Origin: Escherichia phage BEK1-1 | Strand: one strand, 5' to 3' | Sequence record: MN158212.1 | DNA: 44,592 nt | In this document: positions 3,223-41,269 of the stretch, piece by piece | How the letters are laid out: every line of letters starts with the position of its first letter | Numbering within the stretch: the stretch's first letter is position 1 | Translations under genes and position numbers: made by a program | Notes under the pieces: model-generated | What the model was told of the DNA's origin: nothing | The model's database searches: none | What the model saw: the letters and a program-made list of their open reading frames with translations, nothing else

Positions 3223-3870
3223 ATGAACATTGAAGTGTGCAAAGAACAATCAAAAACCATGATGAGCACAAAGGAAATCGCAGAGTTAACCGGCAAACGT
3301 CATGATCACGTCGTTCGCGACACAAAGGAAATGATCAATGAATTGTTACATTATAACGATGCCCCAGATTTGGGTCATGATGATTATCAACTACTTACAG
3401 ACAATCGAGGCTATACATCTGAGATTTTACTCAACAAGGAACTAACCGAAACGCTAATCACTGGCTACAGTGTCGTACTTCGCCACAAAGTAATCCGCAG
3501 GCTTCATGAACTTGAGGCTTTAGTTAAAAAACAAGCGGAAGTAATCAGCCAGATGGTAAGCATTGATGAGCTTAAAGAGGTTCGAATGATGCTTGGTGTG
3601 GCTAATGCGCAGAATGCACACCTGAGCCAGCGCATTGTTGCAGAGCAAAGAATAAATGAGATCTTACTCATGGATAAGAGTACCGATGAAAAACTAGACA
3701 TGCTGGCTTGTGAGGCTCGCCAGTGTTGGGTTAGTCGATCTGATGAGATGGAGGAAAGATTTAAGTATGAAGCCCAATGCTTCGCCCTTAAAGAAAAGAA
3801 TGATGCGCTGACCGGATTGATTGAGAATAATCTCGGCATTGACATCAAGCTGCTGCTGGAAAAGAAATAG
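3223..3870 (+). CDS. Rha-family phage regulatory protein (antirepressor-like)
   Basis: N-terminal ...STKEIAELTGKRHDHVVRDTKEM... resembles the Rha signature; C-terminal half coiled-coil-like; RBS GGAGAG. Confidence 0.5.
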   Translation: MNIEVCKEQSKTMMSTKEIAELTGKRHDHVVRDTKEMINELLHYNDAPDLGHDDYQLLTDNRGYTSEILLNKELTETLITGYSVVLRHKVIRRLHELEALVKKQAEVISQMVSIDELKEVRMMLGVANAQNAHLSQRIVAEQRINEILLMDKSTDEKLDMLACEARQCWVSRSDEMEERFKYEAQCFALKEKNDALTGLIENNLGIDIKLLLEKK

Positions 3871-3945: not shown

Positions 3946-4176
3946 ATGAATAACTTCATCAAATCAGCAATCATCGCAGCAGCAGTAATCATGGCAGTTG
4001 GTTGTTCTTCTGGTCCTCGTCCTGATGGTTGGTGTGCAACGTCCTCAAACGGGGTGTGCGTAGCTAAGTGGAAAGGCGGTGTAGTTGTTCCTGCTGGTGA
4101 AATTGACATTCGATACGATGGAATTAAAGGCTCCAGTGGCTCCGTTCGTGATTATGGCTCTAAGGAGTGGAATTAA
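3946..4176 (+). CDS. cor: Cor-like superinfection-exclusion outer-membrane lipoprotein
   Basis: Internal ATG of track ORF 3877..4176; [22 protein letters not shown] = signal peptide plus lipobox; about 76 aa; position next to the tail-tip genes as in T1/phi80-type phages. Confidence 0.65.
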
Positions 4177-5111
4177 TGGCCCAAGGTATATACATAGATC
4201 TTAATGATGGAAGGAATCCAATGACAATTACCGCAGGGATGCGAGCCTTGAACTTTGCTGGAAACTTCAACGTTTCTAGTGGTGGATTTAGTAAGACGTT
4301 CTCAATCCAGGGAAATGAAGGGGCCTCAAGGTTCCTTATCCCTAACAATGGCGCTTATTCATTCGAGCTTGATAGGGGTGTTGAAATTTATTACATAAAT
4401 GGATTTTCATCAACGGCGTCAAGCGGGACTATATCAATTGGTTATGAGAATGGTTATTCTGACCGTATAACTCAATTCTCTGGTACTGTTGTTGAGGTGC
4501 TAAGGGCATCGACTGGACAAGGTATTTATGTTGCGAATAGTACTGATTTTACTTCGATAACCACCACTGACAGGTTGTTGGTGTGCAAGTTTGCCCAGAG
4601 GATATCTTTCACCAACACATACACACTTCCAATTTATGGGATACCATTTGGAAAGTGGAGCAACCCAGGCGTTTCAGTTGAATACAACGGTAGCAACCAA
4701 CTGATATGTACAAACATAAATACTGAAGATACTGGTGACACACCAGGAAGTGTCACTATGGATTTGATTATCTTCCAGATGGTCGCTCCAACCCCTGGTC
4801 CTGGACTTAACATATTTAATTCAAATGGTGCTTGTACGCTATCGACCGTAACTAGGCCATTGGTTGTTTCTGGATTCATAAATCTATCAGGTAGCAACCA
4901 GTACATTGGCGAATCTTACTTCCCAATACTCAGATGTGGATTTAACACAAGGGCAATACGAGCATATAAGGAGTTAAGAAACAAAGGAATTGTAATGAGC
5001 AATGGGTATGTTAGATCTGGCACGGGCTCAAGGATTGTCAGATACGAGATAGGAAATAGGCCTGACGTAACAATATCAACGCCACTTCCTTACCTTCCTG
5101 ATATGTATTAA
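4176..5111 (+). CDS. hypothetical Gly/Ser/Thr/Asn-rich protein (311 aa), possible fibre-like or exclusion protein
   Basis: ATG overlaps the cor stop (TAATG) with AAGGAG RBS; no signal peptide; ends at a bidirectional terminator. Confidence 0.4.
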   Translation: MAQGIYIDLNDGRNPMTITAGMRALNFAGNFNVSSGGFSKTFSIQGNEGASRFLIPNNGAYSFELDRGVEIYYINGFSSTASSGTISIGYENGYSDRITQFSGTVVEVLRASTGQGIYVANSTDFTSITTTDRLLVCKFAQRISFTNTYTLPIYGIPFGKWSNPGVSVEYNGSNQLICTNINTEDTGDTPGSVTMDLIIFQMVAPTPGPGLNIFNSNGACTLSTVTRPLVVSGFINLSGSNQYIGESYFPILRCGFNTRAIRAYKELRNKGIVMSNGYVRSGTGSRIVRYEIGNRPDVTISTPLPYLPDMY

Positions 5112-5141: not shown

Positions 5142-8100
5142 AGAAAGTACCTACTACAACTCTCCCTCCTCCAGGCAAGTTAACCGTGATTCCGTTTCCG
5201 TTAATCTGTACCGTATTGTTTGTTCCGTTAAAGGCGAATTCACCACTGTTGGCGTACAGTTTGCCGCGAATCTCAGCGTTACCAGACTTATCAATCCTCC
5301 ATCCTGTGCTTCCTGCCACGTAGTTGCTGGACTGAATAAAGTCACCAATCTTCGCGTTAGTAATTGAGCCATCTCCGATTACTGCGCTTTGGATGATTAC
5401 GTTTCCGTTCTCTACAACGAAGGGTAGTTGCCATTGACCGGAGCCAGAACCAATGCCATTACTGATTGCGAATCTGTTTGCGTCAAAAATAAACTGACTG
5501 CGAACATTATCACCAGTGCCAACTAGCTCCATGCTCATGCCGGATGAATAAGTCTGACCATTGTATTTCAGGCCAAGACTAATTCCGTACTGTACACCAG
5601 TTGACGTGGCATTAGAGAAAGCGTCTAACTTCTGGTTTAGAGCCGCCTCGTTTTCGCCAAGTCTTGCTGATAGAGCCGTGTCTGCTGTAGTCCTTGCTTC
5701 TGTCTCTGTGGCTAATGCAGTCTTAACTTCAGTAATCGATGCTACAACTTCATCATCTATCTGCGCTTTAAGGGCCGTTAGAGCCTCTACGCGTGCCTGA
5801 GTTTCATCGGCTATGAGATTCACCGCCTGAACATATTCAGCCTTACGTTTGCCGTTCTCCTTAGTCATGCGACGAACATCAGTGTCATTAGCCAATGCGT
5901 TCTCAAGAATTGACTCTGCCTGATTCTGAATATCCTGATTCTTTTGAATCGCATTCTGCTCCAGGTATTTGAATCCTTCAGAACCCTCAATATCAACCTT
6001 GATGTAATCATTGATAATGTTAGCGTCGTCAGTACTCATGCCTCTAGCAAAATAAGACCAATCAGAGGTATTTCCGATTCTGTCAATCAATCTTGCGCGA
6101 TACCAGATGACCTTACCTGGCTGAATTGGCGTATGCCAGTACTCATAGGCTGGATAAGGTAGTAAAGTCAGCGAGCTTGCGTTATCTGGATTGTAAGTAC
6201 CATCGCCATTATCAGGAACCTGCTGAAGCTCAGTGTAAGCAGTATCACCAGAGCCTTCAGGGAAACCCCACTTAACACGAATGCCGAATACCTCATCTGT
6301 TGATGCCGTGATAACAGTAGGCGCAGATGGGCGACCAATCTTGCCAGTTAGCGATACCGTTACAATGTCAGACCAGGAAGACACGTTTTCAGTATCTGAT
6401 ACGCTGCGAACCCTAACGTCATAGATTCCTGCGTAAATACCTTCGATATCAACCTCTGTGCTAGCTGTTCTGGGTACGTTAATCCAGTTGCCATTCTCTT
6501 TTCTCCACTGAACATTGTAGGTTTTAGCGTATGGAGCTTTATCCCATCCGATAACCATCGTCTCAACCGACAAGCCCTGAACAACCTTGCTATAACTTGA
6601 CACGGTCAAGTTTTCTGGTGGCGACAATCTGTCAGGCTCTACGATTGAAGTCGGGCGGTCAACAATGTTTACGCCATAATCAATCTCGTCATACTTGTTA
6701 GGGTCGTACTCCACTGCTGTAATCGTATACTGGAATGAATCCGATCCATCAGAATCTGCTTTTTGAATCCCGGTCACAACATATTGCTGAAGAGCAAGAT
6801 TGTCCTTATCAATTGCGAACACAGTATCAGGTTGAGCTACAAAGCTAAAAGCAGTATTCAGGTTGATGGTTCTACCGTCTTCCGAAATGCTGGCAATAGT
6901 TCTCGCTTCAGGGCTTCCGTCGGGTTTGTTCAGAAGAATTCTGTCACCTGGAGCTGCGTCAACTTTAAACTGGGTAAAAACCTGCAATCCCTGAACTGAT
7001 TCAATACGACCGGAAAGGTTTAACTGATAGTTACTAGACCATGCCGCGTCATTAACCGCAATGACCTCTCCAATCATCGGAATCATGCCCTCCAACCCAG
7101 TGGTGAAGCTGATAGTTTCGCTTCTCAGGTTGGTTTTCAGGAGCCATCTGCCGCGTCTGTTTGCTTCACTTCTCCGCGTACATCCAATTGCCGTAAGGTC
7201 GACTGGATTAAATCCGAATCTGCGAGTAGCTTCCAGTTCAAATACCGGCTCAACATCCTGCTGATAGTTGTTCTCCACATCATCAAACTGAACGTTCGCC
7301 GTAGTGTAAAGGCTCTTATCACTGGCAAAGGTGCGACTGAACAATCCGTTTACAACGTTATCATTCGTGAAGATGTAAGATGGGTTGCGAGGCTTATCAA
7401 CCACTATACCAATCTTTTCGCCATCATAGAAAGTCAGGCCACGGAAGATTGAGCAGATATCACGAATTAGCGTGTAGGCCTCAACCTTATTCTGTACAAC
7501 CATATCGCACAGGTAGCGCGGCTCCATTCCACCTTTTCCATCAGGAACCATCTGGTCGCAGAATTGCGCAGCCTCGTAAAGACCCCACTTATCAATCTCC
7601 ACGCCCAACTCTCGTTGATCAAGGCCATAGCGACGGTTTGTCACTAAGTCATAAAGAACCCAAGCTGGGTTATTTGACCATGCCATTTTGAACAGTCCAT
7701 TCCATGTTCCGCTGTAAGTTCTTGCTTCCGGGTCGTAGTTGGTTGGGACCTGAATCAGCTTCCAGCGCTTCTTGATAGAGATTGTCGGTATTCCGTTAGG
7801 GAAAAGGTCAGATCCAAACTCAACATAAACCAGAGCCGTAAGCGGATAGCGGAATTTAGCGTCAATTACTTCCTGATAGGTTGTAATCTGCATCCCGTTA
7901 ACCAATGTGCTACTTGTTGAATCCGCTGTAATCTTTCGGATGCGAACCAATGCGCTATCAAATTCAGCCGGAAGGTTCACTCGAATGCTGCGGTCGTAAC
8001 CTGTAGTTGTCTTTCCGTTGGCAACTCCTCGAGTATATTCCTGATAAGCGCCACCATTAACAGAAAGATCAATCGCATACTCGCAGGTTGTTCCGTTCAG

Positions 8101-24860: not shown

Positions 24861-24938
24861 TGGCGCTCCGCACTGGATTCGAACCAGTAACCTACGACTT
24901 AGAAGGTCGTTGCTACTATCCTATTGAGCTAGCAGAGC
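24861..24938 (-). tRNA. tRNA-Arg (anticodon UCU)
   Basis: Minus strand reads GCTCTGC...TAGCTCAATAGGATAG...ACGACCTTCTAAGTCGT...CTGGTTCGAATCCAG...GCGGAGC-G-CCA; acceptor stem pairs 7/7 (one G-U); anticodon loop CT-TCT-AA; T-loop GGTTCGAATCC. Confidence 0.85.
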
Positions 24939-33310: not shown

Positions 33311-33315
33311 AAATA

Positions 33316-33338
33316 TAGCCTCCATTAGGAGGCTTTTT
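33316..33338. terminator. bidirectional intrinsic terminator between convergent genes
   Basis: AGCCTCC-ATTA-GGAGGCT followed by TTTTTTACG; A/T run on the other strand. Confidence 0.7.
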
Positions 33339-33714
33339 TACGCCTTAAGATTAAGGTCAGGAGAATCAGAACAAGCAACCCCATAGCTCCTGTTCCAACC
33401 CACGGAAGCGCTGATGATTCGTTATTGGTAATTTCAATCTTTTCGGCAGTGATTGTTGAGGCCTTAATCGAATTGTCGGCAGTCTTTTTTCCGCTCGAGC
33501 TATCCAGAGAGCCTACGCTAGAATCCTTAACGGAAGCATCGCTGGAGTTACTGGAGTCAACCCTGTTCGTTAACCCGACACCAACCTTATTGTTCTCTGC
33601 ACCAGCTTGAGCGCTAATCTCTGGCTTACTGCCAATTAAACCAGTCAGCGCAGATGTTGCTGAACATCCAGATAAAGCTACGCACATTACTAACGCTGCA
33701 ATCCGCTTAAGCAT
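33325..33714 (-). CDS. unimolecular spanin (u-spanin, T1 gp11-type)
   Basis: N-terminal lipoprotein signal with lipobox LSGC and C-terminal transmembrane helix plus RRKKAS; Ser-rich middle; overlaps the endolysin gene end. Confidence 0.65.
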   Translation of the reverse strand: MLKRIAALVMCVALSGCSATSALTGLIGSKPEISAQAGAENNKVGVGLTNRVDSSNSSDASVKDSSVGSLDSSSGKKTADNSIKASTITAEKIEITNNESSALPWVGTGAMGLLVLILLTLILRRKKAS

Positions 33715-34175
33715 AACTTAATCTCCTCATTCCTGCGGTTTACCAAGCCCTTAACCACAACCCTCTTGCCATTAACGGTGGCTTTATTCCACATCCCGAG
33801 AGCCTTGCAGCCCTGCTCAATCTTACCCTGGTTAATTAACTTAACGGCAGTGGATCTCCTCATTGCAGAGCCACCAACATTATAGCTAAAGCTGATTAAC
33901 GCAGCTCTTGTCTGCGGTGCTATGGGGTAGGTAACCGCATCCTGAACATACTTAGCATGAATCTGGATGTGCTTCTCCAGCAGATTGCGGCACTCCCTGT
34001 TGCTGTATGTTTTACCCCAGACCACATCTGGACCGGTAATACCTGAACAAACTGTAGGTATTCCGGCAATGTCCATGTACGGCTTGTTCTCCACGCCCTC
34101 AACGAGCTCAATAAGCGGCGCTGCGATGTATATTGCTGCAGCCGTAGCCGAGCTAATTAGCAGCTTCTGCTTCAT
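33690..34175 (-). CDS. SAR endolysin (T4-type lysozyme fold, GH24-like)
   Basis: N-terminal weakly hydrophobic segment LLISSATAAAIYIAAPLI followed by E-x8-D-x5-T (E..VENKPYMD.IAGIPT). Confidence 0.7.
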   Translation of the reverse strand: MKQKLLISSATAAAIYIAAPLIELVEGVENKPYMDIAGIPTVCSGITGPDVVWGKTYSNRECRNLLEKHIQIHAKYVQDAVTYPIAPQTRAALISFSYNVGGSAMRRSTAVKLINQGKIEQGCKALGMWNKATVNGKRVVVKGLVNRRNEEIKLCLSGLQR

Positions 34176-34391
34176 TTACTTGCTCCTTATATTGATTGCT
34201 GTTTTCAAGTCTCCCGATTCAAGAGCCCGCCTGATAGCTTGACTATCCTTATACTTCCAGTAAGCACCCCAAACTCCAAAAATGATTAGAGCGATAAGGC
34301 TGATTATTGCTATAGTCATTTGACCAGTTGCTGCGCCAGTTACCGCAGCACCTCCTGTTGATGCCGTAGCGGCGTTAATTACTTCCCTCAT
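34176..34391 (-). CDS. holin (pinholin-like, two hydrophobic segments)
   Basis: Start at internal ATG (MREVIN...) after GGTGGA; Gly/Ala-rich first segment then AIISLIALIIFGVWGAYW; immediately upstream of the endolysin. Confidence 0.55.
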   Translation of the reverse strand: MREVINAATASTGGAAVTGAATGQMTIAIISLIALIIFGVWGAYWKYKDSQAIRRALESGDLKTAINIRSK

Positions 34392-34467
34392 GTGATCCAC
34401 CTTTATGTATTTGTCAATGTTTAAGTTAATAAAAGAATGATACATTAGCACCGCTCGGAAAAGAAGC

Positions 34468-34495
34468 ATAAAAAAAGGGAGCCAAAAGGCTCCCC
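34468..34495 (-). terminator. intrinsic terminator upstream of the lysis cassette
   Basis: Minus strand GGGAGCC-TTTT-GGCTCCC followed by TTTTTTTATGC. Confidence 0.7.
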
Positions 34496-34521
34496 GCTTG
34501 TAACACTATGTTTTAGATACA

Positions 34522-34698
34522 CTAGTCAGCGATAATAAATTCAACTAACGAGCCATCAATCGGCGCTAAAATGTGCGTCATATCGTCGCCATAAATCTTG
34601 TAGTATCCATCGCCCTGGTACTCTGCGTTGTACGGCTGGTTAACTGTAAATGGCAGTGTCTTGGAATTGTTTTTGGTGCAATAAATCATTTTAGTCAT
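34522..34698 (-). CDS. hypothetical protein (58 aa)
   Basis: Below the track cutoff; RBS GAGGAAACACAAAATG; box promoter upstream. Confidence 0.35.
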   Translation of the reverse strand: MTKMIYCTKNNSKTLPFTVNQPYNAEYQGDGYYKIYGDDMTHILAPIDGSLVEFIIAD

Positions 34699-34739
34699 TT
34701 TGTGTTTCCTCGTTTAGTTTATCTCGTTTCGATGTGGTG

Positions 34740-34786
34740 ATTATGCCGCATTTCTACGGCATTAGTTAGGCAAAAAGTGCTATTTA
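34740..34786 (-). promoter_or_regulatory. box promoter, half-box variant (AAATAGCAC..., 20 nt, CATAAT, leader ACCACATCGAAACGAG)
   Basis: Direct reading of the reverse complement. Confidence 0.45.
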
Positions 34787-35265
34787 CCGTGCCTCTCTGT
34801 GAATTCTGGGTTACCCTCGTAAACTGACTTCGCATATGATACTGCTTCTTCTTTTGTGTAGAAGGTTTTGTAAACCCTGTTTTTATCAATCTGAATTTGA
34901 ACAAGCCACGGCTTTCCATCCCTTTTTATCTTATTTATGAAGTAAACACCTGTAACTCCTGATGTGTTATCCTTTCTCATAGCTGCATTCTTGCAGTTAA
35001 CCCATCTATCTACGCATCTCAAATTCTCTATCCGATTATCGTGCTTAACTCCATTAATGTGATCGATTTCCATACCTTTAGGGACTTCTCCGTTATGCAT
35101 TTCCCATATTACTCGATGGGCAAAAGTCATCTTTGAAAACAGTTTAGTCCTAACGTACCCCCTCAAATCAATATACCCAGCCTTAACTCCGTTATAAGAT
35201 GATACCCTGTGGTTCTTTCTGTACAAATCACCATTTGAATATTCGTAATAATCGTGCCAATTCAT
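34780..35265 (-). CDS. HNH homing endonuclease with AP2-like DNA-binding domain
   Basis: ...AHRVIWEMH...EIDHINGVKHDNRIENLR... (HNH) and ...SGVTGVYF...KPWLVQI...KTFYTKEEA... (AP2-like). Confidence 0.7.
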   Translation of the reverse strand: MNWHDYYEYSNGDLYRKNHRVSSYNGVKAGYIDLRGYVRTKLFSKMTFAHRVIWEMHNGEVPKGMEIDHINGVKHDNRIENLRCVDRWVNCKNAAMRKDNTSGVTGVYFINKIKRDGKPWLVQIQIDKNRVYKTFYTKEEAVSYAKSVYEGNPEFTERHGK

Positions 35266-35293
35266 TTCAATCTCCTCTCGTTTCTATAAAACA

Positions 35294-35339
35294 ATAATAG
35301 CCGCTTTCGCGGCTACTGTTTTAACAAAAGGTGCTATTA
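35294..35339 (-). promoter_or_regulatory. box promoter, variant, with hairpin TAGCCGC-GAAA-GCGGCTA inside the 20-nt spacer
   Basis: Direct reading; the hairpin may also terminate transcripts from the upstream phosphoesterase gene. Confidence 0.4.
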
Positions 35340-36491
35340 GTATTTGGATCCAGGGTTTGCGTCACGAAGCATTTCAACAGGAATGCTCACTCGACTAACT
35401 TCTCCATACTTCTTGTGATACGTAATAACGTTTGCACTACGCCCAGAGAAGTACCCGCCCTTGGATGAGTACTCATCTTTTGCAGCAAGTGTCTGGTGTT
35501 GCTCAATAATCATCAAGCTAGTTTCCTTAACCGCTCTGTGGTGCAGGTGGCCTAGGTGCGTGTATGCGAACTTGGATTTACCAAACATCTCACGATACTT
35601 AGCAATTATTGCTGATTCAACTCTGGAGAAGTTAGCGCAATGCCCGTGATGCATGGCAATCATAACGTCTCCAAATTCATATGCGTAGTAAGGGGAAACT
35701 TCGCGATTCACTTCAACTCGCTCATTTTCAATAAATACTTCATGAAACATCTCGCGCAACCATAATGAAGATACCGGGTTGTGATTTCCCTCACAAATCA
35801 ATAGCTTAACCTTTTTATGTTTAACCAGGCACATGCTTATGGCTGCCTTGATTAATTTAATCTGAGTCCGAATCATTCGGAATAATCTAGTATCAGCAGA
35901 AAGAATGTGACCACTCATTGGGGTTACAGCTTTCATTGAGTCGTAGTGAGCCTCATCCCCTAAAAAGTTAATTATGCATTCATCGCTGTTCGGGCTCATT
36001 GCCACGGCGCTGCTGAACCAGTCCAATGCTAATTTCTCAGCAATCTTGGTGTCATAATTGTCACCACCTTCCTCTGCGCAAGCAAGCATTCCAATGTGAT
36101 GGTCTGTGATGGTGTAGAGGTTGAGAATGTCAGAATTAGTTATCTCACCTGAGTGGTTAACAGCATCGTACTTAGGTAGCTCTTTCTTAAGCTCCTCAAC
36201 AACAATTTGCATCAGCTCTTGCTGTCGCTCCTTGTCAACTTCTGATTTAACCCACTGACCTTTAATCTCACCATCGGCACCAATTAAGCTAGACACACCT
36301 TTGACAGCGTAACCTTGAGGAATTAGGTTGCTTACATCACGGCCGTGCCCCTCACCCCGTTTTGCCAGCTTACTACGACGCAATTCAACGTTGCGAATGT
36401 TCATTCCGTACTTCTCTGCGATTGCCTTGTTGGTCATTCCATTCGCCAGCTCTTCGCGTAGTTGTTCGTTGGTGATTTTTGCAGTTGCCAT
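35337..36491 (-). CDS. calcineurin-like metallophosphoesterase with N-terminal helix-turn-helix domain
   Basis: N-terminal ...MTNKAIAEKYGMNIRNVELRR... (HTH-like); phosphoesterase-like motifs ...ITDHHIG..., ...GDEAH..., ...EGNHN..., ...MHHGH..., ...GHLHH... Confidence 0.55.
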   Translation of the reverse strand: MATAKITNEQLREELANGMTNKAIAEKYGMNIRNVELRRSKLAKRGEGHGRDVSNLIPQGYAVKGVSSLIGADGEIKGQWVKSEVDKERQQELMQIVVEELKKELPKYDAVNHSGEITNSDILNLYTITDHHIGMLACAEEGGDNYDTKIAEKLALDWFSSAVAMSPNSDECIINFLGDEAHYDSMKAVTPMSGHILSADTRLFRMIRTQIKLIKAAISMCLVKHKKVKLLICEGNHNPVSSLWLREMFHEVFIENERVEVNREVSPYYAYEFGDVMIAMHHGHCANFSRVESAIIAKYREMFGKSKFAYTHLGHLHHRAVKETSLMIIEQHQTLAAKDEYSSKGGYFSGRSANVITYHKKYGEVSRVSIPVEMLRDANPGSKY

Positions 36492-36574
36492 TATATAAGT
36501 TCCTTAATTCATTACGATAAAGTATAAGATAGTAAAGCTAAACAGTGGGGCTAATGCTACTAGTATCAGGCCCT

Positions 36575-36832
36575 TCATTCAACTTCTTTCAACCAGTAGT
36601 CAATCAAATCAGCACTAATTGCTAATTTCTGGTCAAGGTCAGTCATACAAAGGTCTCCGCATGCTGGGGAGTAGTAAATCTGAACCCACTTCCCGTCTTT
36701 AGTTTTTGCGTTCACATCCACATAATCTGGAGGAAACCAGTCAGAGATGGGTATCGCTCTAAACTTTGCACCACTTTGACCATATACTAAATCGTAATGA
36801 TCTGGCTGAAAATCTAAACCCAACATACTCAA
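36575..36832 (-). CDS. hypothetical protein (85 aa)
   Basis: ORF; ATGA-type overlap with the upstream gene. Confidence 0.35.
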   Translation of the reverse strand: MSMLGLDFQPDHYDLVYGQSGAKFRAIPISDWFPPDYVDVNAKTKDGKWVQIYYSPACGDLCMTDLDQKLAISADLIDYWLKEVE

Positions 36833-37077
36833 TCCTTAGGCTTCGTTATCTTAAACTTGAATCCCTCAGATTTAAGGAACTCGTTAACATCAATTCTAAC
36901 ACCCGGCTTAACTCTTACGTATTTTCTTGGGCGCTCATCCATATAAGAGAATTTACCATTGAAAACAACGCTGATGTCTTTTATATCAAAGAAGCGGGAT
37001 ATCTGCTTAATGTCATCCTGTAACCCCGCCTCACCACAATGTGCCCAAACTGCGGCGCGTCCGGTTTCAACTATCAT
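36829..37077 (-). CDS. hypothetical protein (82 aa)
   Basis: ORF in a translationally coupled chain. Confidence 0.35.
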   Translation of the reverse strand: MIVETGRAAVWAHCGEAGLQDDIKQISRFFDIKDISVVFNGKFSYMDERPRKYVRVKPGVRIDVNEFLKSEGFKFKITKPKD

Positions 37078-37198
37078 AATCCGTAAGCCATTTTCAGGTA
37101 TTCTTTAGCGCACATCCAACAATATTCTGAGTCTGTTTTAACTGCTTCATTTGCATATGTCTGTGCAATTTCGAACATCTCTTTGTCTACGATTTTCA

Positions 37199-37420
37199 TT
37201 ATTCAAAATCCTCTGGGCAATCTTTCTTCATTTCTGCAATGTCTGCAACCATACGGTCACGCCATGTTTCTACATCTGTGTTCAGGTAATCTTCTTCAAA
37301 GCTCATATCCAGGCAAAATGCTAAGTCCCAGGGGTTTTTGTTAAATCCAGACTTCTTTAGTTCCTCAACTGCCATTAGCTTAAAGACTTCCCATTGATTT
37401 TCAAATGTAAAGATTGCCAT
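37199..37420 (-). CDS. hypothetical acidic protein (73 aa)
   Basis: ORF in a translationally coupled chain. Confidence 0.35.
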   Translation of the reverse strand: MAIFTFENQWEVFKLMAVEELKKSGFNKNPWDLAFCLDMSFEEDYLNTDVETWRDRMVADIAEMKKDCPEDFE

Positions 37421-37662
37421 TATTCTGATACCTCATCAAATTTTTCGCCAAATGCGTTTTTAACAGTTTCCAGGTCATCTTTGTAAGTCGGGCTAACTTC
37501 GAAAGCATAACCCTCACCATCGTCAAGAACATAGCCATCAGGGGTGATTACCAATTCATACTCATAACCAGTTTTGCGTGATTCGTAGAATTTTCCAGTG
37601 TAGATAGTAGCCATTTTGTTTCTCTCTCTGTGTTTCGTTTCGATGGAGTAACTATACCCCAA
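37420..37662 (-). CDS. hypothetical protein (80 aa)
   Basis: ORF with box promoter upstream. Confidence 0.4.
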   Translation of the reverse strand: MGYSYSIETKHRERNKMATIYTGKFYESRKTGYEYELVITPDGYVLDDGEGYAFEVSPTYKDDLETVKNAFGEKFDEVSE

Positions 37663-37696
37663 TCTTTAAAATCGTCTTTAGCAATTCGTGCTATTT
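37651..37696 (-). promoter_or_regulatory. box promoter (AAATAGCACGAATTGCTAAA, 20 nt, TATAGT, leader ACTCCATCGAAACGAAA)
   Basis: Direct reading of the reverse complement. Confidence 0.55.
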
Positions 37697-38110
37697 TGAA
37701 ATCATTTCTTCAAATGCTGCCAGGAAGCCCTCTCTACCGTAGGCAACTCCAGCGAAACCTCCTGATTCTCTCACGCTTTTAAGGAAGGACTTCTGTTCGT
37801 CACTGACTGGACTAGCTTGAGTTTTTCCCGCCCTCTTTAGCTCTATGGCCCCAAAAGGGTACTTTCCTCTAAGTGATTCAGGTATCAGGAATAAGCAGTC
37901 CGAAACCCCCTTAAGCAATCCTTTGGCCTGGTCCTTCCTTGCTTGTCCAATGGTCTTCTTACCCTCATTCACGCAGTGGAAAAATACCATCTCTGGATAG
38001 TTATACTTAACCCAATCAGAGCAAAAGATTTGTTCGTCATCCTCTTTCGGGCATGACTTAACCGGGCCAGGGTAAAACTCAATGTAATCAACTTTGTCTG
38101 TAATGTTCAT
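37691..38110 (-). CDS. VRR-NUC domain nuclease
   Basis: ...GVSDCLFLIPE...GAIELKRAGKTQASPVSDEQKSFL...GGFAGVA fits the VRR-NUC PD-(D/E)XK pattern; coupled to the helicase gene. Confidence 0.6.
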   Translation of the reverse strand: MNITDKVDYIEFYPGPVKSCPKEDDEQIFCSDWVKYNYPEMVFFHCVNEGKKTIGQARKDQAKGLLKGVSDCLFLIPESLRGKYPFGAIELKRAGKTQASPVSDEQKSFLKSVRESGGFAGVAYGREGFLAAFEEMISK

Positions 38111-40101
38111 AACAATTCTCCAAAATTCTTAAAAGCTATTATATCATTTCCTTTGCCATTCTTGCGGTGTGTCACCTGGACTGGCGCACGAAACTTATCT
38201 GCGTTAGTCATAATCATTCTGGCATTCTTCAGTCTGCCAATTCGTGCTGCTTCAGCTCGATTTTCAATGTGAGCAAGGCAAAAGTTTTTCCAAAGCACAC
38301 TACAAACCCTGTGGTCAGATTCTGGATTGAAGAACTCCCAAGCATTAAACCGCTCTCCGTTGTGCGCCATGATATTGTACTTAACAACAATTCCCGTTTG
38401 GTTCTTACTTAAGCCAACCTGAAAATCATAAACACGAAGGTAATCACCACGTCGATACATTTTTCCAGTAAGATTGGCATTCGGGTCTTTAAGCATTTCT
38501 CCGCATTCACGACAAACTTTTGCTGCTATGTCATTTTTAGTTCCACAACCTTTCTTGATTACCGCCTTTGTTTGTTGGTCGGTAATATCATCACATGTCG
38601 TGAACTGGAAAAAGTGATCGCATCTAACACCATCAATCTTATTGCTACAGCGTCTAGCAAATGGCGAGTTCTCATATCCACATTTCGGACACTGGCGAAC
38701 CTCATCACCACCTTTTCTTGAGGATTTAAACTTCTCAGCCTGAATCTCCTCAATTATTGGGTCAAAGTAAAGCTCTGCCATGTCATCAAGCGCCCCGGCA
38801 AAGTCTAATACCAAGTGGTCCTCCTTCTTGAACCCAGCATCTATGTGCGCCTTTTTTAGTTTTCGCATGCCACGACCAAGAAGCTGAATCATTAAGGTTA
38901 TACTGCCAATCTTGCGTAGTATGACGCTAGTATCCCACAGTGGTTGGTTTACGCCCGTGGTTAGACATCCAATCTGAAAGATAATCTTGTACTTTCCAGT
39001 CTGGCAATCAGCAAGAATCTCCCTGCGCTTCTTCTCCCCCGTAGAATCAGTAATGATAGCGTAAGGGTATCCATCTGGGAGTGCCTCGGCGGCTTCATCA
39101 CAATGTAGTTTGCCAGCGCATGTTACCAATGCGGCATTGCGAGTCTCAAGTATTTTTACAACAAAACCCATTATCTTTTGAGTCATGGATTGGTTGTCGT
39201 GAATCTTTGCAGCCATTGCGTCCATTTCTTTCTTGCTGAAATCCTTCACGCCATCGCTTCCGTCTGGCGCAAACTCACTAAGGTCATAACCAAGGTCACC
39301 AACCTCGCCGTAAACAGTTGGTACCACGAATCCCAAATCAACAAGGTAATTTGTTGGAACCTGAATCACAGTTTTTCGCCAGAACCCACGGATGTTTGGA
39401 TTGCTAACGACGATATGGTCATTATTTCGATAAGGGCTACCAGTAAGGCCGAATATACGAAGCTCCCGCCCGTATTTTTCACGGCAGCGACGCTTCATCT
39501 CAGTGATTATTAACGTGTACTGCGCGCGACCAGTGCCAAGCAACCCTGTGTTTACGCCATCCTTAAAAACCATCTCGCCTTTCTTTGTGCTCATCTGCTC
39601 AAATGTTTCTTCATTCTCTTCGGCTTCCACGATATCCATGTGATCGACCATGTGGCATTCATCTATAGCTATAACGGCAGGAACATAGTCACCAAGCCCC
39701 TTAAACAAGCCGTTAGCTGCCGTGCCCTCACTAGCAACTATGGTTGGGTAGTAAACTGATTTAACGTTAAGTCCGGCGCAATAGACGCTGTTGCGGATGC
39801 CGAAATTACGAAGTTCTTCTGAGTTCTGGCTTATTATCTCTGACTGGCGAGAAAGAACCATGTAAGGCAACCCTAATTGCTCCATTCGCTTTCCAATCAT
39901 GGCGAGAATGATTGTCTTACCAGCAGATACTGAAAGGTCTGCGATAAATGGGGCCTCGTACTTCCCAATAGCCTTTCCGATAGCATCAAATGTAACGCAC
40001 TGGAACTCGTAAGGAGTTATCTCTCCAAACTGATAATCTTTCTGAATCTGTTTAATTCTTTCTTTATCAAAGTTTGCAACCTGCTTCTCGATAGGCAACA
40101 T
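38107..40101 (-). CDS. DExH-box (SF2) helicase with C-terminal Cys-rich zinc-ribbon region
   Basis: Motif I-like ...SVSAGKTIIL..., motif II ...IDECHMV...; C-terminal ...CPKCGYEN...C...C... cluster. Confidence 0.7.
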   Translation of the reverse strand: MLPIEKQVANFDKERIKQIQKDYQFGEITPYEFQCVTFDAIGKAIGKYEAPFIADLSVSAGKTIILAMIGKRMEQLGLPYMVLSRQSEIISQNSEELRNFGIRNSVYCAGLNVKSVYYPTIVASEGTAANGLFKGLGDYVPAVIAIDECHMVDHMDIVEAEENEETFEQMSTKKGEMVFKDGVNTGLLGTGRAQYTLIITEMKRRCREKYGRELRIFGLTGSPYRNNDHIVVSNPNIRGFWRKTVIQVPTNYLVDLGFVVPTVYGEVGDLGYDLSEFAPDGSDGVKDFSKKEMDAMAAKIHDNQSMTQKIMGFVVKILETRNAALVTCAGKLHCDEAAEALPDGYPYAIITDSTGEKKRREILADCQTGKYKIIFQIGCLTTGVNQPLWDTSVILRKIGSITLMIQLLGRGMRKLKKAHIDAGFKKEDHLVLDFAGALDDMAELYFDPIIEEIQAEKFKSSRKGGDEVRQCPKCGYENSPFARRCSNKIDGVRCDHFFQFTTCDDITDQQTKAVIKKGCGTKNDIAAKVCRECGEMLKDPNANLTGKMYRRGDYLRVYDFQVGLSKNQTGIVVKYNIMAHNGERFNAWEFFNPESDHRVCSVLWKNFCLAHIENRAEAARIGRLKNARMIMTNADKFRAPVQVTHRKNGKGNDIIAFKNFGELL

Positions 40102-40738: not shown

Positions 40739-41269
40739 GTGTATATGAAAGTTAATGATTTTGTTTATGTTGATGATGAATTTAAATTAAGATGGAAGAG
40801 TAGAGGTGTTGAATTCTTCAAAACAGAGAGGTCATCAAAGATCTGGAATAGTAGGTTTGCAAACAAGGAATGTGGATACATTAGGGATGACGGCTATCTT
40901 TCTTTTGAGTTCAATGGTCGAGCATACAGAAATCACAGGGTGATATGGGAAATTGTAACTGGTAATGAAATAGATGATAACATGGAGATTGACCATATAG
41001 ATCATAATACAACAAACAACAATACTGAAAACCTTAGACTTGTTGACAGGAAAGAGAATTGCAAAAACCAATCCATGATGCCCCATAACTCGAGTGGCTT
41101 CACAGGTGTTCACTGGTGGTCAGCAAGAAACAAATGGAGAGCCCGCATCGAATGTGATGGCAGAGTGAAAACAAAAACATTTGAAGACTTTAATGACGCC
41201 GTCGAGTGGAGAAAAGAAATGAACATAAATCTTGGCTTTCACAAGAATCATGGAGATAAGAAAAAATGA
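40739..41269 (+). CDS. HNH homing endonuclease with AP2-like domain (paralogue of 34780..35265)
   Basis: ...YRNHRVIWEI...EIDHIDHNTTNNNTENLR... and ...SGFTGVHW...KWRARIECDGRVKTKTFEDFNDAVEW... Confidence 0.7.
   Translation: MYMKVNDFVYVDDEFKLRWKSRGVEFFKTERSSKIWNSRFANKECGYIRDDGYLSFEFNGRAYRNHRVIWEIVTGNEIDDNMEIDHIDHNTTNNNTENLRLVDRKENCKNQSMMPHNSSGFTGVHWWSARNKWRARIECDGRVKTKTFEDFNDAVEWRKEMNINLGFHKNHGDKKK

Follow-up and report, generated by a model that had tools for sequence, protein, structure and literature searches.

The gene and its family

This work concerns one gene of Escherichia phage BEK1-1 (MN158212.1), whose DNA was analysed as a single stretch of 44,592 nucleotides, referred to here as the window. 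The gene is an ATG-initiated open reading frame (ORF) on the minus strand, taken from a program-made ORF list. Its product of 384 residues consists of a probable N-terminal helix-turn-helix (HTH), a beta-hairpin and a C-terminal metallophosphoesterase (MPE) domain (Table 1). A Shine-Dalgarno-like motif precedes the start codon and a terminator-like hairpin follows the stop codon; phage T1 has an annotated terminator at the equivalent place, after gene 16. A scan of the sequence just 5' of the gene found no sigma-70-like promoter. Over its full length the protein matches PHROG 704 (‘DNA repair exonuclease’), with residues 4–375 aligned to positions 2–389 of the 390 in the profile (E=3.7e-141), and its best homologue matches reach E=3e-250. 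A profile of the family searched against 1.84 billion proteins recovered 6276 clusters (50% identity), 2198 of them at E<=1e-30. Judged by these three results the ORF is real, far beyond what chance would produce.

Sequence comparison identifies the gene as the orthologue of phage T1 gp16 and TLS gp66. Relatives were found by tblastn in 2007 phage records, and in 1737 of these the match covers at least 80% of the protein; the hosts include Escherichia, Klebsiella, Salmonella, Vibrio, Campylobacter, Rhodobacter, Ruegeria, Erwinia and Pseudomonas. The majority of the clusters matched by the profile are 370–400 residues long and match end to end. A further 80 loci lie in bacterial genomes, mostly of Proteobacteria, and these are prophages, because the gene sits there among endolysin, tail and HNH genes. 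Alignment indicates that the HTH-hairpin-MPE layout is standard for this very common phage family and is carried by most relatives. A preliminary description of this DNA had considered the HTH fusion to be the unusual part of the protein; this view is not upheld, the same layout being present in T1 gp16, TLS gp66, PHROG 704, the 2007 phage records and the prophages.

T1 gp16 and TLS gp66 resemble the window protein in length (371–384 residues) and in layout, and share its position in the genome: helicase, VRR-NUC, small genes, MPE, terminator, in some cases an HNH gene, and then holin, endolysin and spanin. In the catalytic domain they are ~41–50% identical to the window protein at the amino acid level. 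The window copy differs in carrying a catalytic-domain allele unlike that of its closest genus, with GNHN in place of GNHD. Members of the family appear in GenBank as ‘DNA repair exonuclease’, ‘phosphoesterase’, ‘metallophosphoesterase’, ‘winged helix-turn-helix domain-containing protein’ and ‘oxidoreductase’. T1 gene 16 (ST16, YP_003929.1), which is followed by a terminator and the HNH gene 15, is annotated ‘DNA repair exonuclease’, and in a 2024 re-annotation TLS gp66 is called a ‘proof-reading exonuclease’, a label with no experiment behind it (PMC11447400). The window gene thus adds one member to a phage family that is known and widespread, though uncharacterised, and is an ordinary core gene of the Drexlerviridae.

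The catalytic domain

The five motifs of the calcineurin-like superfamily (DxH, GDxx[DH], GNH, H and GxH) are present in order in the C-terminal part of the protein. An alignment of 30 family members leaves D130, H132, D179, H182, N236, H237, H282, H284, H315 and H317 invariant. In a more divergent alignment of 46 sequences, D130, H132, D179, H182, N236, H237, H282 and H317 remain invariant, with H284 and H315 reaching at least 90% conservation; the family alignments reach down to 22–30% identity. The residue following H237 is asparagine in the window copy, against aspartate or glutamate in the superfamily signature. Two further segments are conserved like the metal ligands and are specific to the family: a loop past motif II (T190-P-x-S-x-H195-x-L-x-x-D200-x-R202) and a segment past motif V (E330-x-H332...D339-x-Y341...G345-G346...R351). 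Both are modelled with low confidence, and they probably shape the substrate site.

Pfam Metallophos (PF00149) does not match the window protein. Among the 30 relatives, Metallophos matches 12 (E down to 1.5e-4) and Metallophos_2 matches 6, while a distant relative (P0144) passes the gathering score of Metallophos with 25.1 against a cut-off of 21.5. On these comparisons the family is too divergent for the Pfam model. An AlphaFold2 model of the protein (pLDDT 79, pTM 0.68) has the beta-alpha-beta-alpha-beta sandwich fold of the MPE superfamily, and Foldseek matched it to PolD DP1, Rv0805, Mre11, GpdQ and Vps29, all near E 1e-6. In a comparison of folds the model scored 14.0 against both SbcD and Mre11, 13.5 against both the polymerase delta B-subunit and PolD DP1, 13.4 against MJ0936, 12.3 against GpdQ, 12.1 against Rv0805, 12.0 against LpxH and 8.6 against PP5. 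Nuclease-type MPEs lead by a small margin and protein phosphatases are clearly distant. Together, the conserved residues, the Pfam matches of relatives and the model make the case for an MPE strong.

Searches of PDB sequences with the single sequence and with two family profiles returned nothing significant. The MPE structures matched by the diverse family profile, all below threshold, were SbcD/Mre11 (2q8u, E 0.93; 3qg5, E 2.4) and the Pseudomonas ‘nuclease MPE’ (6nvo, E 3.7). These were the sole MPE structures that the family profile found and, sub-threshold as they are, they agree in direction. The NCBIfam model for the PdeM endonuclease gave weak matches in 6 of the 30 members (best E 0.0022). 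The form of motif I, DxHxG, and of motif II, GDxxH, resembles that of Mre11.

The N-terminal region

In a separate model of the N-terminal region (pLDDT 80.7), as in the full-length model, this part comprises three helices, a disordered linker, a hairpin formed by strands 61–70 and 76–85, and a helix at 86–103. Pfam GerE matches residues 13–43 of the window protein below threshold (E=0.018; 15.1 bits against a cut-off of 23.5). Across 30 members GerE matches 10 and HTH_23 matches 6 (best E 2.4e-5), and HTH_28, HTH_24, HTH_8 and Sigma70_r4 are also among the models that match many relatives. Longer variants likewise start with an HTH, and one of them, P0146, scores above the Pfam gathering cut-offs for Sigma70_r4, HTH_11 and HTH_24. 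The top PDB match of the family profile is GerE (1fse), below threshold at E 0.18. Foldseek matches to the N-terminal model are nearly all HTH DNA-binding domains, mainly of the LuxR/NarL type and including those of LiaR, VraR, DosR, RcsB and NarL (probability 0.9–0.98, E>=0.08). Across the family the N-terminal segment is basic, with a median isoelectric point (pI) of 9.7, while the MPE domain is slightly acidic (6.4). Taken together, sequence and model make an N-terminal HTH probable, although each single-sequence line lies below its formal threshold. Canonical GerE has four helices, whereas the HTH of the window protein has three.

The sole invariant residues of the N-terminal region, G60, G65, S67, W80 and K82, lie in the hairpin. 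The homologue of Campylobacter phage PC14 (locus L091, 2998-3951; 317 residues) lacks the HTH and retains the conserved hairpin, as do Campylobacter phage homologues, and for this reason the hairpin is, on sequence comparison, part of the functional core. The preliminary description had proposed a 384-residue ORF at this position, had quoted the motifs DHH, GDEAH, GNHN, HHGH and GHLHH, and had read the protein as an HTH joined to a calcineurin-like phosphoesterase. The ORF stands, with its entry in the ORF list and its upstream AAGGA; the motifs are all in the translation; and the architecture is borne out by the Pfam and family matches, the model, Foldseek, the basic pI and the MPE motifs.

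Table 1. Positions in the window of the MPE gene, its parts and its surroundings
Feature	Position	Strand	Remark
ORF of 384 residues, T1 gp16 / TLS gp66 orthologue, PHROG 704	35337..36491	-	Stop codon included
Probable basic three-helix HTH, LuxR/GerE type, residues 1-48 (helices 8-16, 21-28, 32-44)	36348..36491	-	
Flexible linker and long beta-hairpin, residues 49-85	36237..36347	-	
Acidic connecting helix (86-103) and variable linker, residues 86-112	36156..36236	-	
MPE (calcineurin-like) catalytic domain, residues 113-384	35340..36155	-	
MPE motif I, D130-H-H132	36096..36104	-	Family consensus TDxHxG
MPE motif II, G178-D-E-A-H182	35946..35960	-	Family consensus GDFLH
MPE motif III, G235-N-H-N238	35778..35789	-	Family consensus GNHD
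MPE motif IV, H281-H-G-H284	35640..35651	-	
MPE motif V, G314-H-L-H-H318	35538..35552	-	
Shine-Dalgarno-like AAGGA, 9 nucleotides 5' of ATG	36501..36505	-	Read from the sequence
Terminator-like GC-rich hairpin, 20 nucleotides past the stop codon	35296..35317	-	Hairpin called on + strand too
SF2 helicase with zinc ribbons	38107-40101	-	
VRR-NUC nuclease	37691-38110	-	
Four small ORFs (73-85 residues) between VRR-NUC and MPE gene	36575-37662	-	No Pfam match
HNH (homing-type) endonuclease, immediately downstream of MPE gene	34780..35265	-	
Tract without nucleotide similarity to Veterinaerplatzvirus vB_EcoS-12210I	34788..36208	.	~1.4 kb

Gene neighbourhood in the window

The window is, by sequence, a T1-like genome of the Drexlerviridae (Braunvirinae), and 24.6 kb surrounding the gene is ~90% identical to Veterinaerplatzvirus phages. 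On the minus strand the order of genes is helicase, VRR-NUC, small ORFs, MPE, terminator-like hairpin, HNH, a DUF7244 protein, holin, endolysin and spanin. The MPE gene closes the helicase/VRR-NUC transcription unit, just ahead of the HNH gene and the lysis cassette, and the same gene order is found in T1, TLS, vB_Ec-G8 and vB_EcoS-12210I. A primase, a DUF3987 helicase, a RecE-like exonuclease and an Erf protein are encoded elsewhere in the window. The placing of the gene in a replication and recombination block, as proposed in the preliminary description, is correct.

Several other features of the window were recorded. T1 and TLS carry a Dam methylase between the VRR-NUC and MPE genes, and the window has none there. 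A second HNH endonuclease, like the first a member of PHROG 99, lies at 40739-41269 (+) between a transcriptional regulator and the primase; it is missing at that position in the close relative vB_Ec-G8. A tRNA-Arg (anticodon TCT) occupies 24861-24938 (-), as annotated in related Veterinaerplatzvirus genomes, and 3223-3870 (+) codes for an anti-repressor (Ant)-like protein (PHROG 8235) in what is otherwise a virulent T1-type genome.

A mosaic gene

The window gene is a mosaic. A tract running from the 3' end of the HNH gene through the terminator to codon ~95 of the MPE gene, and so including codons ~95–384, has no nucleotide similarity to vB_EcoS-12210I, while its flanks (33315-34787 and 36209-39992) are 90–91% identical to that phage, which has no HNH gene at this position. 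At the protein level, residues 1–85 share at least 90% identity with the allele usual in Braunvirinae, against 20–50% for residues 90–384. The catalytic half is 71–78% identical to alleles of Jersey-like Salmonella phages. The simplest reading of these sequences is that a homing HNH gene arrived and the adjacent MPE sequence was co-converted, which is favoured because the replaced tract spans the 3' end of the HNH gene to MPE codon ~95. Selection on a domain boundary, or functional modularity, was considered as the source of the breakpoint and set aside, since homing co-conversion fits the tract better.

HNH genes also flank the MPE gene in T1 (gp15; L002, 42028-42510), vB_Ec-G8, a 71%-identical contig, a Vibrio phage and TLS (endY; L088, 9966-10637); the other two HNH coordinates recorded are 5666-6166 in locus L007 and 4004-4513 in locus L090. 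The lineages concerned (Drexlerviridae, a Vibrio phage, a metagenomic contig) are in part unrelated to one another. This adjacency could reflect a conserved homing target, or a nicking enzyme paired functionally with an exonuclease.

Motif III reads GNHD in 73 of 82 loci and ANHD in 4, and GNHN occurs only in the window and vB_Ec-G8. Two metagenomic clusters (P0001 and P0002) also have GNHN, and P0003, which is 90% identical, retains GNHD. The D238N change (codon 238, 35778-35780 in the window) is limited to this sub-lineage. It is tolerated, since the ORF is otherwise intact and conserved.

Genomic context across lineages

Neighbouring genes were clustered from the ORFs of 86 loci and the window, of which 82 carry the gene. 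The gene always lies among genes of DNA or nucleotide metabolism, with neighbours that vary by lineage. In the T7-like Erwinia phage phiEa1H the order is 5'-3' exonuclease, endonuclease VII, MPE, PNK and ligase; in the lambdoid Pseudomonas phage MPK9 the gene lies in a nin-like region, past NinB and a nucleotide kinase and ahead of the lysis genes. The N4-like roseophage DSS3phi2 has dCMP deaminase, MazG and ThyA followed by the MPE gene, and the Campylobacter myophage PC14 has a DNA ligase directly upstream of it. A dNMP kinase and an HD dNMP phosphatase each occur near the gene in 16 of the 82 loci, and a group of alphaproteobacterial prophages has a nucleotide kinase nearby as well.

There is no conserved partner gene, no neighbour family being present in more than 17 of the 82 loci; the commonest neighbours are endolysin, dNMP kinase, HD phosphatase, nucleotide kinase, HNH endonuclease and tail genes. 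The window contains no ORF for Rad50/SbcC. Within three genes on either side of the MPE loci there are 16 ORFs of 500 residues or more, and all of them lack an N-terminal P-loop.

Comparison with known enzymes

The protein is Mre11-like in chemistry only and is not a housekeeping Mre11/SbcD. Mre11/SbcD enzymes have a capping domain of ~100 residues, whereas the window protein has none and extends for only ~65 residues past motif V. They also have a tail that binds Rad50/SbcC; the window protein lacks it, and no Rad50/SbcC gene is present in the window or the 82 loci. In turn, the window protein has an N-terminal HTH that Mre11/SbcD do not. Its sequence similarity to Mre11/SbcD is not significant, and no Pfam or NCBIfam model for SbcD or Mre11 matches it. 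An Mre11/SbcD-like nuclease was one of three functions offered in the preliminary description, and it is the best supported of them by fold and by style of motif; membership of Mre11/SbcD itself, however, did not survive these comparisons. The same description held that a clear Mre11/SbcD assignment, with no HTH fold at the N-terminus, would speak against it; no such assignment emerged, and the HTH fold is predicted.

T1 and TLS break down host DNA and reuse its nucleotides, and no gene has been assigned to this activity (PMC11447400). In T5 the host chromosome is digested in vivo through A1, a predicted metallo-phosphatase that is both necessary and sufficient for this (bioRxiv 10.64898/2026.04.02.716235). 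Like the window protein, A1 is a phage enzyme of MPE type, and according to the preprint it too finds its closest structures among double-strand-break repair nucleases and polymerase proofreaders (10.64898/2026.04.02.716235). T5 encodes the DNA-binding protein A2 as a separate gene; the window protein joins a putative DNA-binding domain and an MPE in one chain. A1 differs in being a 556-residue product of a pre-early gene that also takes part in second-step DNA transfer and binds RNA polymerase. By eye, residues ~300–505 of A1 (L087, 1706-3376) show GDIH, HDVHD, SNHD followed by S-x-WL, HGH and GHTH, ordered as in an MPE, with a likeness to motif III of the T1 gp16 family in the stretch NHD..S.WL. 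Homology was nevertheless rejected: the profile comparison with hhalign gave a probability of 18%, limited to that stretch, BLASTP gave E 0.2, and A1 matches only PHROG 1745. A1 is retained here as a functional analogy only.

Gp48 of the cluster A mycobacteriophage A10ZJ24 is another phage MPE. It has five motifs, is expressed early and acts as a phosphodiesterase, and by disrupting the integrity of the host genome it silences defence genes (PMC12287305). Its motif I begins at residue 10, which leaves no room for an N-terminal HTH module. The ligase-associated PdeM and the Pseudomonas putida ‘nuclease MPE’ are stand-alone MPE nucleases that act without Rad50, as is proposed for the window protein, some of whose homologues adjoin a DNA ligase. 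PolD DP1 and the eukaryotic polymerase B-subunits have an OB-fold and, for DP1, the partner DP2. The window protein has neither, its N-terminus being HTH, hairpin and helix, and no polymerase gene is present in the window, T1 or TLS.

Possible functions

The best explanation of these observations, which we put forward tentatively, is that the protein is a stand-alone binuclear-metal phosphodiesterase that is tethered by its HTH and acts on DNA. Of its parts, DNA as the substrate and a role of the HTH as the DNA tether are each somewhat more likely than not. In this mechanism the MPE gene would be expressed last in the early-middle helicase/VRR-NUC transcription unit. The basic LuxR/GerE-like HTH, perhaps aided by the invariant beta-hairpin, would hold the enzyme on duplex DNA, and the C-terminal MPE domain would cut phosphodiester bonds at ends or nicks by chemistry like that of Mre11/SbcD. 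Two metals would be bound by D130, H132, D179, N236, H284 or H282, H315 and H317, with H237 and H182 as the catalytic pair, and the enzyme would act without a Rad50/SbcC ATPase partner. As to the biological role, breakdown of the host chromosome to feed nucleotide reuse is, put briefly, the one thought likeliest; weighed in full it stands level with the processing of DNA ends, and it is doubtful in either case. Taken to its furthest, the proposal is that the T1 gp16 family is the long-sought nuclease which dismantles the host chromosome in T1-like and many other phages, an idea that we consider unlikely. It could then be a single-chain, HTH-guided, Rad50-independent MPE DNase that has converged on the function of T5 A1. 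T1 mutants in gene 2.5 leave the host DNA undegraded and are high-frequency transducers, and T1 gp16 might correspond to this classical function.

A number of points weigh against the proposed DNase and its role in host-DNA breakdown. Every sequence-level link to solved nucleases lies above E=0.9, and literature searches (T1 gp16 homologues, escape mutants, CRISPRi/Tn-seq fitness) found no experimental study. Members of the family are frequent among temperate phages and prophages, as in MPK9 with its C2 repressor and in the 80 bacterial loci, where wholesale destruction of host DNA is unexpected. The links to ligase and PNK suit end repair as well as degradation. The neighbouring dNMP enzymes come mostly from one group of related alphaproteobacterial prophages and hence are not independent. 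T5 A1 has no specific relationship to the family and falls in a different PHROG, and the prophage HD phosphatase, considered as a homologue of T5 Dmp, was rejected (BLASTP E 23). The GNHN motif of the window copy also departs from the near-universal GNHD.

The same chemistry directed at phage DNA would make the protein a nuclease for DNA-end processing or repair in the phage's own replication and recombination, trimming blocked, hairpinned or damaged ends and nicks for RecE/Erf recombination, VRR-NUC resolution or ligation, akin to PdeM in ligase-associated repair or to a Rad50-free Mre11. The position in a helicase/VRR-NUC unit, with RecE-like and Erf genes present in the same genome, is consistent with this, as are the ligase directly upstream in PC14, the endonuclease VII upstream and PNK and ligase downstream in phiEa1H, the weak matches to PdeM (‘ligase-associated DNA damage response endonuclease’) and the appearance of 6nvo among the profile matches. 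That temperate phages and prophages carry the gene, moreover, suits a housekeeping role on DNA better than it suits host destruction. Set against these are the want of a conserved partner, the absence of ligase from the window, T1 and TLS, and a separate HTH for which the need is not obvious, so that end processing too can be given only a minor share of belief. Less probable still is a phosphodiesterase of small nucleotides, either an anti-defence enzyme acting on cyclic (oligo)nucleotides or other nucleotide alarm signals or an enzyme of the nucleotide pool, whose HTH would make it a bifunctional enzyme-regulator like NadR, BirA and PutA. Nucleotide-pool enzymes are frequent neighbours, and the two conserved family-specific loops (residues 183–202 and 330–351) could form a specific pocket for a small ligand. 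A basic HTH conserved throughout the family would, however, be of no obvious use on a diffusible substrate, and the PADLOC library, which covers defence rather than anti-defence proteins, gave no match. The known anti-CBASS, anti-Pycsar and anti-type-III enzymes (Acb1, Apyc1, AcrIII-1) have other folds and are not known to carry a DNA-binding domain.

Two further activities suggested by annotation or superfamily are much harder to sustain. A 3'-5' proofreading exonuclease subunit that assists a DNA polymerase in the manner of PolD DP1 would agree with the label ‘proof-reading exonuclease (gp66)’ for TLS (PMC11447400) and with the annotation of the MPK9 homologue as ‘DNA polymerase small subunit, C-terminal domain’. 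There is, however, no DP2-like partner and no OB-fold domain, and the family tracks no polymerase, occurring both with a family-A polymerase of the phage itself (phiEa1H) and without any (T1 and TLS, PMC11447400; MPK9), which leaves this reading very improbable. A protein Ser/Thr/Tyr phosphatase acting on host factors, like the lambda phosphatase NinI, is the least credible of all: the protein belongs to the MPE superfamily, but its motif II is GDxxH and not the PPP signature GDxxDRG, no Pfam or NCBIfam model of a PPP family matches it, and neither the paired GDxxDRG and GNHE signatures nor close fold similarity to PPP enzymes was found. The MPK9 copy does lie in a nin-like region between NinB and the lysis genes, and lambda carries NinI in the corresponding region. 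As regards proofreading, the host Pol III already has the epsilon proofreader.

Significance

By itself the window gene changes nothing, being one more ordinary orthologue. The family to which it belongs is of note, being present in ~2000 sequenced phages (T1-like, Jersey-like, T7-like, lambdoid, N4-like and Campylobacter myophages) and in many prophages, and going by four different guessed names. Host-DNA degradation by T1 and TLS is without an assigned gene (PMC11447400), while MPEs have recently been shown to carry out this function in T5 and a mycobacteriophage. The family is a cheap and testable candidate for the missing host-DNA nuclease of T1. Should this unlikely reading hold, an HTH selective for sequence or modification might further account for the escape of phage DNA from the enzyme. 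Work on the family might yield T1-type phages with altered transduction or host-shutoff behaviour.

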